DNA of 64,000 nucleotides, taken from the NCBI RefSeq assembly GCF_058153355.1, contig NZ_CM177019.1; one strand, written 5' to 3'. Of the stretch, positions 3,296-63,687 are shown one piece after another. A program made the translations under genes and the position numbers. The notes under the pieces were generated by a model that did not search any database, had not been told where the DNA came from, and saw nothing but the letters and a program-made list of their open reading frames with translations. The number at the start of each line of letters is the position of its first letter. Position 1 is the stretch's first letter.

Positions 3296-6219
3296 ATGCC
3301 CCGCAGCACCTGGTTCAAAGCATTATTGTTGTTTGTTGCCCTTTGGGCACCCTTAAGTCAGGCAGAAACGGGATGGCAGCCGATTCAGGAAACCATCCGT
3401 AAAAGTGATAAAGATAACCGCCAGTATCAGGCTATACGTCTGGATAACGGTATGGTGGTTTTGCTGGTTTCTGACCCGCAGGCGGTTAAATCGCTCTCGG
3501 CGCTGGTGGTGCCCGTTGGGTCGCTGGAAGATCCCGAGGCATACCAGGGGCTGGCACATTACCTTGAACATATGAGTCTGATGGGTTCGAAAAAGTACCC
3601 GCAGGCTGACAGTCTGGCTGAATACCTCAAAATGCACGGCGGCAGCCACAATGCCAGCACGGCACCGTATCGCACGGCTTTCTATCTGGAAGTTGAGAAC
3701 GACGCCTTACCCGGTGCGGTAGACCGCCTGGCCGATGCTATTGCTGAACCCTTGCTCGACAAGAAATACGCCGAACGTGAGCGTAATGCGGTGAACGCTG
3801 AATTAACCATGGCGCGTACGCGTGATGGGATGCGCATGGCACAGGTCAGCGCAGAAACCATTAACCCGGCACACCCAGGTTCAAAGTTTTCTGGTGGTAA
3901 CCTCGAAACTTTAAGCGATAAACCCGGCAATCCGGTACAGCAGGCGCTGAAAGATTTCCACGAGAAATATTACTCTGCCAATCTGATGAAGGCGGTTATC
4001 TATAGCAAGAAGCCGCTACCGGAGCTGGCGAAGATGGCTGCTGATACTTTCGGTCGCGTGCCGAACAAAGAGAGCAAAAAACCGGAAATCACTGTGCCGG
4101 TAGTCACCGACGCGCAAAAGGGCATTATCATTCATTACGTCCCGGCGCTGCCGCGTAAAGTTCTGCGCGTTGAGTTTCGCATCGATAACAATTCAGCGAA
4201 GTTCCGTAGTAAAACGGATGAATTGATTACCTATCTGATTGGTAATCGCAGCCCAGGTACACTTTCTGACTGGCTGCAAAAGCAGGGATTAGTTGAGGGC
4301 ATTAGCGCCAATTCCGATCCTATCGTCAACGGCAACAGCGGCGTATTAGCGATCTCTGCGTCTTTAACCGATAAAGGTCTGGCGAATCGCGATCAGGTTG
4401 TGGCGGCCATTTTTAGCTACCTCAATCTGTTACGCGAAAAAGGGATTGATAAACAATACTTCGATGAACTGGCGAATGTGCTGGATATCGACTTTCGTTA
4501 TCCGTCAATCACCCGTGATATGGATTACGTCGAATGGCTGGCAGATACCATGATTCGCGTTCCTGTTGAGCATACGCTGGATGCAGTCAATATTGCCGAT
4601 CGGTACGATGCTAAAGCAGTAAAAGAACGCCTGGCGATGATGACGCCGCAGAATGCGCGTATCTGGTATATCAGCCCGAAAGAGCCGCATAACAAAACGG
4701 CTTATTTTGTCGATGCTCCGTATCAGGTCGATAAAATCAGCCCACAAACTTTCGCTGACTGGCAGAAAAAAGCCGCCCACAAACTTTCGCTGACTGGCAG
4801 AAAAAAGCCGCCAATATTGCGCTCTCCTTACCGGAGCTTAACCCTTATATTCCTGACGATTTCTCGCTGATGAAGTCAGAGAAGAAATACGACCATCCAG
4901 AGTTGATTGTGGATGAGGCGAATCTGCGCGTGGTGTATGCGCCGAGCCGTTATTTTGCCAGCGAGCCTAAAGCCGATGTCAGCCTGATTTTGCGTAACCC
5001 GAAAGCCATGGACAGCGCCCGCAATCAGGTGATGTTTGCGCTTAATGATTATCTTGCCGGACTGGCGCTTGATCAGTTAAGCAACCAGGCGTCGGTTGGT
5101 GGCATAAGTTTTTCCACCAATGCTAACAACGGCCTTATGGTTAATGCCAATGGTTACACCCAGCGCCTGCCGCAGCTGTTCCAGGCTCTGCTGGAGGGCT
5201 ACTTTAGCTATACCGCTACGGAAGAGCAGCTTGAGCAGGCGAAGTCCTGGTATAACCAGATGATGGATTCCGCAGAAAAGGGCAAAGCGTTCGAGCAGGC
5301 GATTATGCCCGCGCAGATGCTCTCGCAAGTGCCGTACTTCTCGCGAGATGAACGGCGCAAAATTTTGCCTTCAATCACTTTGAAAGAGGTGCTGGCCTAT
5401 CGCGACGCCTTAAAATCAGGGGCTCGACCAGAGTTTATGGTTATTGGCAACATGACCGAAGCCCAGGCAACAAAGCTGGCACGCGATGTGCAAAAACAGT
5501 TGGGCGCTGATGGTTCGGAGTGGTGTCGTAACAAAGATGTCGTGGTCGATAAAAAACAATCCGTCATCTTTGAAAAAGCCGGTAACAGCACCGACTCCGC
5601 ACTGGCAGCGGTATTTGTACCGACTGGCTACGATGAATACACCAGCTCAGCCTATAGCTCTCTGCTGGGGCAGATCGTACAGCCGTGGTTCTACAATCAG
5701 TTGCGTACCGAAGAACAGTTGGGCTATGCCGTGTTTGCGTTTCCAATGAGCGTGGGACGTCAGTGGGGCATGGGCTTCCTGTTGCAAAGCAATGATAAAC
5801 AGCCTTCATTCTTGTGGGAGCGTTACAAGGCGTTTTTCCCAACCGCAGAGGCAAAATTGCGGACGATGAAGCCAGAAGAGTTTGCGCAAATCCAGCAGGC
5901 GGTAATAACCCAGATGCTGCAGGCACCGCAAACGCTCGGCGAAGAAGCATCGAAGTTAAGTAAAGATTTCGATCGCGGCAATATGCGCTTCGATTCGCGT
6001 GATAAAATCGTGGCCCAGATAAAACTGCTGACGCCGCAAAAACTTGCTGATTTCTTCCATCAGGCGGTGGTCGAGCCGCAAGGCATGGCTATTCTGTCGC
6101 AGATTTCCGGCAGCCAGAACGGGAAAGCCGAATATGTGCATCCTGAAGGCTGGAAAGTGTGGGAGAACGTCAGCGCGTTGCAGCAAACAATGCCCCTGAT
6201 GAGTGAAAAGAATGAGTGA
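3296..6219 (+). pseudogene. ptrA: Protease III (pitrilysin) gene disrupted by a 35-bp tandem duplication; reads as two ORFs 3296..4870 and 4870..6219
   Basis: N-terminal ORF has a signal peptide and the HxxEH zinc motif (HYLEHM); it terminates 20 codons after the duplication; the second ORF continues in another frame; removing one 35-bp copy gives a single 962-aa ORF. Confidence 0.85.
4741..4810 (+). repeat. Perfect tandem duplication, 2 x 35 bp (cccacaaactttcgctgactggcagaaaaaagccg), inside ptrA
   Basis: Positions 4741-4775 and 4776-4810 are identical; the length is not a multiple of 3. Confidence 0.95.
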
Positions 6220-20196: not shown

Positions 20197-20273
<77 letters not shown>

Positions 20274-20316
20274 TCACCGTACTGCTTTACTTCATCAAAT
20301 TTTGATTGGTTGCGGG

Positions 20317-20393
<77 letters not shown>

Positions 20394-24706: not shown

Positions 24707-24912
24707 AAAAAAAAGCACCGCAATTAGGCGGTGCTACATTAATCACTATGGACAGACAGGGTAAATGTACAGGAAGTGAAAAAAGGTAGCTTTGCTACCA
24801 TGGTCTGAATCGCAGACCAATTGCAAACACAACAACACAACATCACAACCGTAAGCCAAAAGTTCACCAGAACACGCATTCCGATAAAACTTTTCGTTCC
24901 GGCTCAGGAAGT
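24707..24912 (-). ncRNA. gcvB: GcvB small regulatory RNA, divergent from gcvA
   Basis: Minus-strand sequence from acttcctgagccggaacgaaaag through the GU-rich region gttgtgatgttgtgttgttgtgtttg to the terminator agcaccgcctaattgcggtgcttttttt matches GcvB as recalled. Confidence 0.9.
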
Positions 24913-43082: not shown

Positions 43083-43449
43083 CGTCGACAGGGAGTCAGA
43101 CAACGAAGTGAACATCAGGATGATGACACTTCTGAAGGACACACCAGGAGGGTGTTTCAGGGAAAGGCTTCTGGATGAAGCGAAGAGGATGACGCAGGAC
43201 GCGTTAAAGGACACCTCCAGGATGGAGAATGAGAACCGGTCAGGATGATTCGGTGGGTCAGGAAGGCCAGGGACACTTCAGGATGAAGTATCACATCGGG
43301 GTGGTGTGAGCAGGAAGCAATAGTTCAGGATGAACTATTGGCCGCAAGGCCAGAGGAAAAGTTGTTAAGGATGAGCAGGGAGCAACAAAAGTAGCTGGAA
43401 TGCTGCGAAACGAACCGGGAGCACTGTGAATACAGTGCTCCCTTTTTTT
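43083..43449 (+). ncRNA. csrB: CsrB, the CsrA-sequestering sRNA
   Basis: About 367 nt with many repeated GGA-containing motifs (caggatg, aaggaca, aggatga); terminator ccgggagcactgtgaatacagtgctccc plus T run; location between syd and yqcC. Confidence 0.92.
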
Positions 43450-43494
43450 ATTCCTGCTATCCTTCGCGGCAGTTTTTCTTATTGAGGTTGCTTT

Positions 43495-58826: not shown

Positions 58827-60140
<1,314 letters not shown>

Positions 60141-60181
60141 GTCTGACTTTATCTGATTTAAAAATGCCAGCCTTCGGGCTG

Positions 60182-61607
60182 TAATGCCGATCAGTTAAGG
60201 ATCAGTTGACCGATCCAGTGGCTGTGTAAGAATCCGGAAACGCTCACTTGTTTCCGGATTTTTTTATGCACATTGGACAGGCTCTTGATCTGGTATCCCG
60301 TTACGATTCTCTGCGTAACCCACTGACTTCTCTGGGGGATTACCTCGACCCCGAACTCATCTCTCGTTGCCTTGCCGAATCAGGTACTGTAACGCTACGC
60401 AAGCGCCGTCTTCCCCTCGAAATGATGGTCTGGTGTATTGTTGGCATGGCGCTTGAGCGTAAAGAACCTCTTCACCAGATTGTGAATCGCCTGGACATCA
60501 TGCTGCCGGGCAATCGCCCCTTCGTTGCCCCCAGTGCCGTTATTCAGGCCCGCCAGCGCCTGGGAAGTGAGGCTGTCCGCCGCGTGTTCACGAAAACAGC
60601 GCAGCTCTGGCATAACGCCACGCCGCATCCGCACTGGTGCGGCCTGACCCTGCTGGCCATCGATGGTGTGTTCTGGCGCACACCGGATACACCAGAGAAC
60701 GATGCAGCCTTCCCCCGCCAGACACATGCCGGGAACCCGGCGCTCTACCCGCAGGTCAAAATGGTCTGCCAGATGGAACTGACCAGCCATCTGCTGACGG
60801 CTGCAGCCTTCGGCACGATGAAGAACAGCGAAAATGAGCTTGCTGAGCAACTTATAGAACAAACCGGCGATAACACTCTGACGTTAATGGATAAAGGTTA
60901 TTACTCACTGGGACTGTTAAATGCCTGGAGCCTGGCGGGAGAACACCGCCACTGGATGATACCTCTCAGAAAGGGAGCGCAATATGAAGAGATCAGAAAA
61001 CTGGGTAAAGGCGATCATCTGGTGAAGCTGAAAACCAGCCCGCAGGCACGAAAAAAGTGGCCGGGACTGGGAAATGAAGTGACAGCCCGCCTGCTGACCG
61101 TGACGCGCAAAGGAAAAGTCTGCCATCTGCTGACGTCGATGACGGACGCCATGCGCTTCCCCGGAGGAGAAATGGCGGATCTGTACAGTCATCGCTGGGA
61201 AATCGAACTGGGATACAGGGAGATAAAACAGACGATGCAACTGAGCAGGCTGACGCTGAGAAGTAAAAAGCCGGAGCTTGTGGAGCAAGAGCTGTGGGGT
61301 GTCTTACTGGCTTATAATCTGGTGAGATATCAGATGATTAAAATGGCGGAACATCTGAAAGGTTACTGGCCGAATCAACTGAGTTTCTCAGAATCATGCG
61401 GAATGGTGATGAGAATGCTGATGACATTGCAGGGCGCTTCACCGGGACGTATACCGGAGCTGATGCGCGATCTTGCAAGTATGGGACAACTTGTGAAATT
61501 ACCGACAAGAAGGGAAAGGGCCTTCCCGAGAGTGGTAAAGGAGAGGCCCTGGAAATACCCCACAGCCCCGAAAAAGAGCCAGTCAGTTGCTTAACTGACT
61601 GGCATTA
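60182..61607 (+). mobile_element. IS4 insertion sequence, complete (1426 bp) with terminal inverted repeats
   Basis: Left end taatgccgatcagttaagg and right end ccttaactgactggcatta are inverted repeats; flanked by direct repeats cagccttcgggctg at 60168-60181 and 61608-61621; joining the flanks gives aaaaatgccagccttcgggctggcatttttt. Confidence 0.9.
60266..61594 (+). CDS. insG: IS4 transposase (DDE family)
   Basis: 442 aa from [16 protein letters not shown]; enclosed by the IS4 terminal repeats. Confidence 0.9.
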
Positions 61608-61639
61608 CAGCCTTCGGGCTGGCATTTTTTATGGCTGAG

Positions 61640-62545
61640 TTACCAGCGACCGGAAGCACCGCCACCGCCAGAAGAACCGCCACCTCCGCTAAATCCGCCG
61701 CCACTTGAGCCGCCACCGGAAGAGGATGAAGAAGAACCTTTTCTTGAAGCTCTTTCTTTACCGAGCGTCTTGTATTTGGCTCGTAGCTTTTTATTAACGA
61801 TAAGCCAAAAGATAAGCAGCGCTACGATCGCAAAAGGCGTTAACATACCGCAGGCAACGATTAAATTCGTCCATGGTCCTGGCTCGGCAACATAGAGGAA
61901 TACCATCCCGTAAATTGCGGCAGTGAGAGTTATCCAGGGTAGATTCGACGGATCGGTAAAAACAACAAAATATGAAAGCACTGCCAGCAATATAAGTACA
62001 GCAAGCGAAAATGGGATAGGGGGATTGATACTGTAATAATTCCCCCTGCCTTCCGGTAATTCACCATTCATCAGAAGTGCGCCGATATTTTCGCTTGCCA
62101 GTGTTAACCCCCCCATCAGGTCATCACTTTTGAAAGCAGGGATTAATATGTCACGGATAATCTTTGCCGCTTGCAGGTCGGTAACCACCCCTTCCAGCCC
62201 ATAGCCGACTTCTATACGAACAGCATGATCTTCCCAGGCAACCAGAAGTAAAATGCCATCGTTTCGCTGCTTATCTCCCAGTTTCCAGCTATCAAAAACG
62301 CGTGTTGCATATTGTTCAATAGAATCGTCTCCGGTGGATGGCACTATTAATACGGCGACCTGTGCCCGTGTTTTTTGTGTAATATCCTGCAGCTGTTGTG
62401 TCAGTGATTGTTGTTCAGACGTGCTTAAGGTACCAGTAATATCGGTCACCTGTTGGCGCAGCTCCGGCACAGCAATTTGCTGGGCAAGCACAGGAAGGCA
62501 CCATAAAGTGAGTAGAAAAAGGATTATACGCATAACGATCACCAA
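61640..62545 (-). CDS. TPM-domain (YgcG-like) membrane protein with a Gly/Ser-rich C-terminal tail
   Basis: 301 aa; signal peptide, TPM-type region (ILLLVAWEDHAVRIEVGYGLE), two or three TM helices, tail SSSSSSGGGSSGGGFSGGGGSSGGGGASGRW. Confidence 0.75.
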   Translation of the reverse strand: MVIVMRIILFLLTLWCLPVLAQQIAVPELRQQVTDITGTLSTSEQQSLTQQLQDITQKTRAQVAVLIVPSTGDDSIEQYATRVFDSWKLGDKQRNDGILLLVAWEDHAVRIEVGYGLEGVVTDLQAAKIIRDILIPAFKSDDLMGGLTLASENIGALLMNGELPEGRGNYYSINPPIPFSLAVLILLAVLSYFVVFTDPSNLPWITLTAAIYGMVFLYVAEPGPWTNLIVACGMLTPFAIVALLIFWLIVNKKLRAKYKTLGKERASRKGSSSSSSGGGSSGGGFSGGGGSSGGGGASGRW

Positions 62546-63687
62546 CGGCCGGATGAACTGCCGCCTCCTGAAGAACCGCCGCCACCGCGGAAAGAATTTT
62601 TCGACGAAGAGCGAGAATGAGCATTACGATTCCCCGTTTTCCTGTTGCTTTTATGTCCTGATCCCAGTTTAAGATTGCCAGTAAATTTGGCCACAATGAT
62701 CAGCAGAACGATGCCTGCAATGGTTATTGGGCCGATAAAATGATCAATTAGCCCAATAATTGTTGAGATGAATGCTATATCTTTATTACTGGCGAACACC
62801 AGGCACCATCCCACAACAATTATCAGCAGCACGACAAACAATGAGTTTCGTTCGGATTGAGAAAACTGCTGAGTCGTCTTTTGTTTTTTCACTTTAGCGT
62901 TTTTATTTTGGGGGGCCAGCATCATAGGAAATGCGCGGCATATATTAAAAACTACCGCGAGACGCTGCCAGCAGATTGCTGCGAAAAATAAACTAAAACA
63001 AACGACCGATACCCGCCGAATGATGACATCGTCCTGAAAGGAGAAAAACCAGACCATAGGAGTAATCATCGATATCATCCATATGCCAGGCCCGGGACGG
63101 CTGGTAAATCGCCAGAGGACAACGATGGCAACGATCATCAGTAATGTCCAGGCAAGACATGGCAGCGAGCGTTGCGGATTAGCAAACAGATGATTGGCTA
63201 AAGCATCCAAAGGGCTAAGGTTCGCTTTGATATGGGTAAACTGTGCGATGCTTTCAATTCCCTGCGTTAACCCGGAGAAGAGATTATTTTTTTTGAATTC
63301 CGGTTGCATATGGTAATGAACAATTTGCGCAGCTTGTTCCGGTGGCAGCATCTCTTCCAGTCCATGCCCAATCTTCATTGACGCCAGCCCTTCCGGCCAA
63401 ACGACGAGAATTAAGATACCTTCGCCGTACCGCTTCTCTCCAACAGGTTTCCAGTGATATATCCCGTAGCTTTGCGAGGCTGCAAGTTTAATGTCTTTAC
63501 CCCCAGTGGTCGGCGTTACCAACACGGCCACCTGAAAGTGGTTTTGCTGCTCGAGAGTCTGTAATTGTTGATTTAAAGCAGTTTGTTCTTCTGTCGTTAA
63601 TGTCCCGGTTAAGTCAGTTACTGAAGGCAATTGTTCAGCGAATGCCTGGAAACCACATAGCATCAGAAGTAAGAGAAAAATACGCAT
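62539..63687 (-). CDS. Paralogous TPM-domain polytopic membrane protein with a Gly/Ser-rich tail
   Basis: 382 aa; signal peptide, TPM-type region (ILILVVWPEGLASMKIGHGLE), several TM helices, tail GGGGSSGGGSSSGRW; stop overlaps the start of the downstream gene. Confidence 0.7.
   Translation of the reverse strand: MRIFLLLLMLCGFQAFAEQLPSVTDLTGTLTTEEQTALNQQLQTLEQQNHFQVAVLVTPTTGGKDIKLAASQSYGIYHWKPVGEKRYGEGILILVVWPEGLASMKIGHGLEEMLPPEQAAQIVHYHMQPEFKKNNLFSGLTQGIESIAQFTHIKANLSPLDALANHLFANPQRSLPCLAWTLLMIVAIVVLWRFTSRPGPGIWMISMITPMVWFFSFQDDVIIRRVSVVCFSLFFAAICWQRLAVVFNICRAFPMMLAPQNKNAKVKKQKTTQQFSQSERNSLFVVLLIIVVGWCLVFASNKDIAFISTIIGLIDHFIGPITIAGIVLLIIVAKFTGNLKLGSGHKSNRKTGNRNAHSRSSSKNSFRGGGGSSGGGSSSGRW

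Follow-up and report, generated by a model that had tools for sequence, protein, structure and literature searches.

An IS4 insertion at a recurrent target site, the predicted bidirectional terminator between eno and a convergent ygcG-like gene in Escherichia

Background

How does an insertion sequence (IS) come to lie in the hairpin that two convergent genes appear to share as a terminator, and what becomes of transcription there afterwards? These questions are raised by the region downstream of eno (enolase) in a stretch of 64,000 nucleotides from contig NZ_CM177019.1 (assembly GCF_058153355.1), hereafter called the window. An intact copy of IS4, 1426 bp in length, occupies positions 60182..61607 (plus strand) of the window, between eno and a convergent gene similar to ygcG that encodes a TPM-domain protein. 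An earlier interpretation made from the letters of the window, referred to here as the sequence-only reading, had proposed that IS4 disrupted a bidirectional terminator common to both genes, that read-through and antisense transcription were likely to follow, and that the site might be one preferred by IS4.

The analysis presented here leads to an explanation in which we place high confidence as a whole, that of an insulated IS4 insertion in a hotspot formed by the eno terminator. An active-looking IS4 would have transposed into the apex of the terminator hairpin common to eno and the TPM gene, with staggered cuts falling 3 bp inside each of the flanking runs of A and T, and repair would have duplicated the 14-bp hairpin core. 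Such insertions recur because the site matches the general IS4 target, which consists of an A-tract, a GC-rich dyad of about 20 bp and a T-tract. Inward-facing hairpins of IS4 are likely to replace the destroyed terminator and to shield the transposase gene from outside transcription, and the duplicated half-sites, which keep an outward hairpin and a U-tract, are likely to stop transcripts that leave IS4.

Results and discussion

Identity of the inserted element

The element was identified as IS4 itself, in an active-looking copy. Its single transposase open reading frame (ORF) is intact, running from an ATG at 60266 to a stop codon at 61594 (plus strand), and encodes a protein of 442 aa that matched the Pfam families Nterm_IS4 (3e-33) and DDE_Tnp_1 (8.7e-32) and the NCBIfam equivalog transpos_IS4_1 with 304.5 bits (cutoff 115). 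The family is defined by D(60~110)D(100~150)E spacing and the motif Y(2)R(3)E(6)K, and the IS4 subgroup has ends of the form -AATR--------WTW and a length of 1400-1650 bp (PMC2266710, with the ends given in its Table 1). In the window transposase the candidate DDE residues, as assigned by motif, are D133, D209 and E314, with spacings of 75 and 104 that lie inside the family ranges, and the second motif is present as Y307-R310-E314-K321 (residues 307-321). The number of transposase ORFs, the size and the ends of the element are likewise those of the subgroup.

The terminal inverted repeats, recovered both by a repeat search and by a pattern scan, are TAATGCCGATCAGTTAAG at the left end (IRL, 60182-60199, plus strand), which carries the end signature of the IS4 subgroup, and TAATGCCAGTCAGTTAAG at the right end (IRR, 61590-61607, minus strand). 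They are identical at 16 of 18 positions, and these two sites were the only matches of the pattern scan in the whole window, against a chance expectation of 0.01. No difference was found between the window copy and the consensus of 22 other full-length copies, and the element was 99.9% identical over 1426 bp to elements annotated as 'IS4-like element IS4 family transposase' (insG), which occur at 5468 places in 2686 of the 5426 complete E. coli genomes searched. The sequence-only reading had described an IS4 with IS4-type terminal inverted repeats, a length of 1426 bp and a 442-aa transposase, and the Pfam, NCBIfam and identity results agree with that description. It had also named a transposase of a different IS family as the result that would speak against it; the equivalog match and the absence of differences from the consensus identify IS4.

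Target duplication and the empty site

The left junction (examined in window positions 59700-62100) reads TTTAAAAATGC CAGCCTTCGGGCTG followed by the IS start TAATGCCGATCAGTTAAGG, and at the right junction the IS end CTTAACTGACTGGCATTA is followed by CAGCCTTCGGGCTG GCATTTTTTATGG. Both copies of CAGCCTTCGGGCTG, at 60168..60181 and 61608..61621, are exact over 14 bp, and further extension of the repeat is blocked by c versus a on the left and t versus g on the right; the probability of a 14-bp match by chance at fixed positions is about 4^-14. The duplicated sequence, a 5-bp stem with a TTCG loop, is the core of the terminator hairpin. Outside the duplication the two arms of the target are still in place, A5 followed by TGC on the left (AAAAATGC, 60160..60167), which is the same in the empty sites L004 (K-12) and L005, and GCA followed by T6 on the right (61622..61630), as seen in the window and in the empty sites. 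The layout of the site is AAAAA-TGC-[14]-GCA-TTTTTT, that is, A5-N20-T6 with a tract spacing of 20 (3 + 14 + 3), and the interval 60160-61630 reported by the sequence-only reading runs exactly from the A-run to the T-run.

When the flanks are joined, they give AAAAATGCCAGCCTTCGGGCTGGCATTTTTT, which was found uninterrupted in the intergenic region between eno and the TPM gene of strain Z0117EC0005. The empty site of K-12 MG1655 is the same except for a TCCG loop, and the intergenic region in the empty sites is 59 nt long. The flanking direct repeat, the palindrome between A- and T-runs that had been reconstructed on paper, and its comparison with insertion-free isolates therefore all bear out the sequence-only reading: the repeat copies are exact, and the joined flanks exist as a real empty site, with an identical counterpart in Z0117EC0005 and one differing in the loop in K-12.

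The eno coding sequence (58842..60140, plus strand), recognized from its ORF, a match to NCBIfam TIGR01060 (682.7 bits) and the annotation eno in homologous loci, ends 19 nt from the A-run. The stop codon of the convergent ygcG-like gene (61640..62542, minus strand; 300 aa, GTG start) lies 9 nt from the T-run; its product matched Pfam TPM_phosphatase (8.8e-39), and its homologues are annotated as ygcG or as TPM domain-containing protein. The reconstructed site folds into a 13-bp stem closed by a loop of 4 nt, with energies of -20.7 kcal/mol for the plus strand and -20.3 kcal/mol for the minus strand, and 0 of 200 shuffled sequences folded as well. The hairpin is kept in the sampled insertion-free E. 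coli strains, including K-12 and Z0117EC0005. By every sequence hallmark the target is a bidirectional intrinsic (Rho-independent) terminator, with its activity predicted. The 13-bp hairpin on both strands, the A5 and T6 runs and the two nearby stop codons are in keeping with the bidirectional form that the sequence-only reading had assigned to it.

Recurrent insertion at eno

Among the complete E. coli genomes, IS4 was present at eno in the orientation of the window in 83, a count obtained at the left junction and again at the right junction. A synthetic junction query identified the opposite orientation at the same junction position in 78 further genomes, with up to 100% identity, so that the eno site is occupied in 161 of 5426 genomes (3%). 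In strain SMS-3-5 IS4 is reversed and the 14-bp repeat is the same, and AMSCJX02 has a 13-bp repeat, CAGCCTCCGGGCT, with the K-12 loop allele TCCG in both copies. Of two metagenome contigs, L038 has a junction of the TTCG allele that ends ...GGGCT, and L094 one of the TCCG allele that ends ...GGGCTG. These differences in orientation, in the loop allele, in where the junction lies and in the length of the repeat (13 or 14 bp) indicate at least five independent insertions at one hairpin.

Identical junctions are common among the occupied genomes (22 at 100% identity), and recombination of flanking DNA is frequent in E. coli, both of which would suit a single ancient insertion, inherited vertically or spread by homologous recombination, in place of a hotspot. 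Such a history predicts a single clade and a single junction type, an expectation contradicted by the opposite-orientation insertions and by the junction and loop variants. With the same flanking DNA on either side, IS4 points one way in 83 genomes and the other way in 78; the left junction lies at one of two positions (...GGGCTG or ...GGGCT), and the loop has two allelic forms, of which TCCG is carried by both repeat copies of AMSCJX02; and the eno site agrees with the general IS4 target profile described below. A single origin thus seems to us highly improbable, and these comparisons strongly support the eno hairpin as a preferred, recurrent IS4 site. What the sequence-only reading had offered as a guess, that the site is a preferred one, now has behind it 161 occupied genomes, both orientations, 13- and 14-bp repeats and two loop alleles. 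The presence of IS4 at eno is already known, in that public genomes, among them those of CE10, IAI39 and SMS-3-5, contain it in annotated form.

Rearranged versions of the locus were also seen. In IAI39 (NC_011750.1, 3330608-3336907) the eno-IS4 junction is intact, and a truncated gene, ysgD and corA lie beyond IS4. The ygcG-IS4 junction of this genome is located about 258 kb from the eno-IS4 junction (3075155 versus 3333608), a separation that indicates an inversion through recombination between two IS4 copies. In E. coli O39:NM F8704-2 and in E110019 the eno-site junctions are about 1.26 kb farther apart than a 1426-bp IS4 would place them, and the gene there carries no annotation beyond 'IS4 family transposase'; it seems that another insertion has interrupted IS4 in these two strains.

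IS4 target sites in general

The flanks of other IS4 copies were collected by a search for the IS4 left end in public contigs from genomes and metagenomes, which yielded 77 unique flanks over both IS ends, 69 of them non-redundant. The matches in the genome contigs were mostly contig-end IS4 copies of one Kosakonia draft, usable as single flanks only. A further 12 sites were taken from complete genomes, and the survey covered 18 complete sites. Reading into the IS end, the profile of the 69 flanks showed A at 52-87% from -21 to -16, a C-rich stretch from -14 to -9, and G at 72% and 80% at -4 and -1, respectively. AAA was present at the expected distance in 56 of the 69 flanks, compared with 15% of control positions, and 28 of 69 flanks, compared with 9% of controls, had a stem of at least 4 bp that closed where the IS begins. 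In 29 of 67 flanks, against 12% of controls, an ORF in the same direction and at least 100 codons long ended within 120 nt upstream, mostly at 19-46 nt. Reconstructed sites located 36-59 nt after adhE, aroA, bamD and typA, and one between the convergent genes tynA and feaB, had the order A-run, hairpin, T-run. IS4 therefore usually lands in A-run/GC-hairpin/T-run sites just after genes, and the comparison with other IS4 insertion sites, 69 flanks and 18 complete sites, gives the same target as the one reconstructed at eno.

A minority of IS4 sites are in coding DNA (ygeA and a gene for PTS IID) or lack a hairpin, as the K-12 site does (minimum free energy -0.8 kcal/mol). These sites would fit the alternative that the palindrome is only a DNA motif for the IS4 transposase, comparable to an attachment site, and not a terminator, with its intergenic position being incidental; they imply that recognition takes place at the level of DNA, through the A/T tracts and their spacing, and not via terminator function. 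The eno site itself speaks for a terminator, with its GC-rich 13-bp stem, tetraloop, A5 and T6 runs and a distance of 19 and 9 nt from two convergent stops, and its hairpin is also retained by the insertion-free E. coli strains that were sampled, K-12 and Z0117EC0005 among them. The motif and terminator readings are, moreover, compatible, since the transposase can recognize DNA features that terminators happen to have. We consider it improbable that the palindrome is a motif and nothing else, and continue to read the target as a predicted terminator.

One further candidate rule, that the target arms mimic the IS end (AAATGCC versus TAATGCC), was rejected as a general rule: TGC followed the A-run in 6 of 56 flanks and was not the commonest 3-mer there.

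The preference of IS4 for particular targets is already described in outline (De Palmenaer et al. 2008, PMC2266710). Mayaux and colleagues reportedly arrived in 1984 at the consensus AAA-N20-TTT, based on an insertion of IS4 into the pheST attenuator. The A5-N20-T6 site at eno has the same tract spacing of 20, with the duplication centred between the tracts, and the 69-flank profile agrees. IS231A, another member of the IS4 family, was reportedly found by Hallet and colleagues in 1994 to use a GGG-N5-CCC target flanked by AT-rich bent DNA. As at eno, the duplicated segment there would be the core of a GC-rich dyad with AT-rich arms, about one helical turn in length, a likeness that is a lead only; IS231A differs from IS4 as an element, in its core consensus and in its hosts.

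The IS4 of K-12 (the insG copy) is the same element as that of the window, with the same inverted repeats and 442-aa transposase, but it occupies a non-hairpin site with a 12-bp duplication, acAAAcacCAGAACCAAGATgcctaTTT. Eight new IS4 insertions, four of them non-coding, were described in K-12 mutation-accumulation lines by Lee et al. 2016. Insertion sequences that target REP elements, including the IS4-family member ISRm22 (PMC1525189), likewise use intergenic palindromic hairpins downstream of genes as low-cost sites. Their targets belong to a repeated REP family, whereas those of IS4 are unique terminator-like hairpins with A/T tracts. The accessible published literature on IS4 target preference makes no explicit mention of bidirectional terminators at gene 3' ends as preferred targets, and a literature search on IS4 polarity or terminators returned nothing specific. 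The link to such terminators with terminator replacement, and the 14-bp duplication, are possibly under-described.

The scan also gave a view of IS4 outside Escherichia and of its recombined copies. The draft genome of the rice-associated Kosakonia oryziphila REICA_142 had 16 contigs (L006-L021) with an exact IS4 left end, nearly all near contig ends, which suggests a large IS4 expansion in this species; most of its flanks show the same A-run/GC-dyad target. An IS4 left end was located within a 1.07-Mb scaffold of Photorhabdus khanii NC19. A 265-bp contig of Methylobacterium mesophilicum NBRC 15688 is probably E. coli contamination of the assembly, because its IS4 has exactly the flank of the K-12 IS4 site. 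In L097, L049, L050, L088, L100 and L114, IS4 lacked a direct repeat, and its flanks came from two different terminator-like targets; in L097 the element is 1422 bp long, and another site is joined to the ygcG half of the eno site. Judged by their flanks, these repeat-less copies are footprints of IS4-IS4 recombination.

Predicted transcription across the insertion

For transcripts that enter the element, the insertion cuts the hairpin from 13 bp to a 5-bp CAGCC/GGCUG stem, which is followed by UAAUGCC without a U-tract, and the original U-tract is displaced by 1.4 kb. Because the stem is reduced and no U-tract follows it, the original terminator is probably lost for both eno and the TPM gene.

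Just inside each end of IS4, on the strand relevant to incoming transcription, a terminator-like hairpin was identified; the left one would halt RNA coming from eno, and the right one RNA coming from the ygcG-like gene. The left one, with arms AAGAATCCGGAAAC / GTTTCCGGATTTTT (60228..60263, plus strand; T7 run to 60265), folds at -21.0 kcal/mol (z -6.95), lies 47-82 nt inside the left end and ends at the base before the transposase ATG. The right one overlaps IRR and reads GCCAGTCAGTT AAGC AACTGACTGGC followed by TCTTTTT (61603-61578 within the feature 61570..61603, minus strand). It has 11 pairs plus TCTTTTTCGG, folds at -18.7 kcal/mol (z -5.4) and lies 5-30 nt inside the right end. The half-sites left by the duplication also appeared as terminator-like in the scan, facing outward at 61608-61621 on the plus strand with the tail GCATTTTTT and at 60181-60168 on the minus strand with the tail GCATTTTT.

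A promoter-like site, TTGACC with a 16-nt spacer and TG-AAGAAT (60206..60233, plus strand), was detected by a consensus scan and probably serves as promoter for the transposase gene. Its -10 hexamer shares sequence with the 5' arm of the left internal hairpin, the 3' arm of which contains a GGA located upstream of the transposase ATG. Because the -10 hexamer is inside the 5' arm, the transcript of IS4 itself would start within the hairpin and escape it, and we infer that transcripts from outside would be stopped and perhaps translationally masked.

These features bear on the alternative that termination is abolished, with eno and ygcG-like transcripts running deep into or through IS4, producing antisense RNA and driving the transposase. 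The reduction of the entering hairpin to a 5-bp stem and UAAUGCC, which makes the original terminator very likely non-functional for both genes, favors it. Against it stand the strong hairpins with U-runs just inside both IS ends (-21 kcal/mol with U7, and -18.7 kcal/mol with UCUUUUU) and the persistence of the insertion in 161 genomes, in both orientations, beside the highly expressed eno, which fits a low cost. Such abolished termination therefore appears unlikely to us, and an insulated insertion is the preferred reading. The 3' extensions expected from it are about 85 nt for eno and about 50 nt for the TPM gene, with no long read-through or antisense RNA expected. Short extensions of this kind would explain why IS4 is tolerated next to eno in both orientations and in 161 genomes. 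The part of the sequence-only reading that concerned loss of the terminator for both genes is upheld by the 5-bp stem and the missing U-tract, but the long read-through and antisense transcription that it considered likely are probably overstated in view of the inward hairpins. Because it lies between convergent genes, with the inward IS4 hairpins and the outward half-sites, the insertion is probably nearly neutral.

Duplication length and tract spacing

The target duplication tabulated for the IS4 subgroup is 10-13 bp (De Palmenaer et al. 2008, PMC2266710), an empirical range close to one turn of the helix, compared with 14 bp at eno in the window. Over the 18 complete sites, the repeat was 11 bp in three, 12 bp in nine, 13 bp in four and 14 bp in two, and both 14-bp repeats are at the eno site (the window and SMS-3-5), where AMSCJX02 has 13 bp. 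At 8 of 11 sites the cut fell 3 bp inside the A-tract; on the T-tract side the same offset was seen at 6 of 12 sites. Repeat length rose with the spacing between the A- and T-tracts (Spearman 0.67, p = 0.03, n=10, two of the events being at one site), a relation that is only suggestive and is treated as a lead, not a result.

We tentatively raise, as somewhat less than probable, the broader possibility that IS4 is a specialized terminator-swapping element. It would cut about 3 bp inside the A/T tracts, so that tract spacing and not a fixed stagger sets a duplication of 11-14 bp; it would target bidirectional intrinsic terminators at gene 3' ends, supply inward terminators and leave outward half-terminators. 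If this were true, the 20-bp spacing at eno would account for a duplication of 14 bp, the longest seen and outside the range published so far, and the tract-spacing rule would add detail to what is known of target capture by IS4-family transposases.

The surrounding region

To the right of IS4 the window contains two adjoining TPM-domain genes, encoding 300 and 382 aa (61640-63687). The exact 300-aa TPM protein was found in the Logan assembly SRR8656992 (L107), whose contig ends in the same IS4 junction and carries, beyond the two TPM genes, a 302-aa gene, a LemA gene and queE; K-12 instead has ygcG-yqcG-queE. Because the K-12 order differs from that of the window and of L107, the locus to the right of IS4 can be described, from gene order, as an allelic gene-cluster variant. 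The small RNAs CsrB and GcvB and two tandem tRNA genes were recognized by Rfam at window positions 43093-43452 (plus strand), 24707-24912 (minus strand) and 20200-20383 (minus strand), and with barA, relA, pyrG and gud they are the expected content of this region of the E. coli chromosome.

Points that weigh against the explanation

Several observations count against the explanation given above. A simple terminator scan did not list the plus-strand internal hairpin of IS4, probably because part of the T-run is taken up into its maximal stem. Terminator activity, whether of the original hairpin, the hairpins within IS4 or the half-sites, is predicted from sequence and folding, and a literature search for Term-seq data on the eno terminator or for data on eno-ygcG termination found nothing specific. 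The count of independent events takes it as given that neither paired repeat changes nor junction shifts can develop later in an existing insertion. At 14 bp, the duplication exceeds the tabulated 10-13 bp by 1 bp, a minor point; the range is descriptive and not defining. Finally, the 20 kb to the left of IS4 (window 40000-60181) is 98.4-98.7% identical to the best of the 5426 complete E. coli genomes. The right junction had no match above 98.3% among the complete E. coli genomes, and the ygcG-like allele of the window had no exact match in the 5426. Because of this best identity and the absence of an exact allele, the window is placed in an Escherichia/Shigella lineage that the collection lacks.

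Conclusion

In conclusion, the finding is real but ordinary, in that the element is known and public genomes already show it, annotated, at this recurrent site. Its direct consequence is small, the insertion being a standard IS4 at a site where about 3% of complete E. coli genomes carry one. It offers a clean natural case in which an insertion sequence has chosen a site of low cost, namely the apex of a terminator between convergent genes. IS4 at eno is a recurrent, homoplasic marker, and for that reason is unfit as a clonal marker unless orientation and junction are checked. IS4 copies at such sites are also substrates for inversion, as in the 258-kb case of IAI39.

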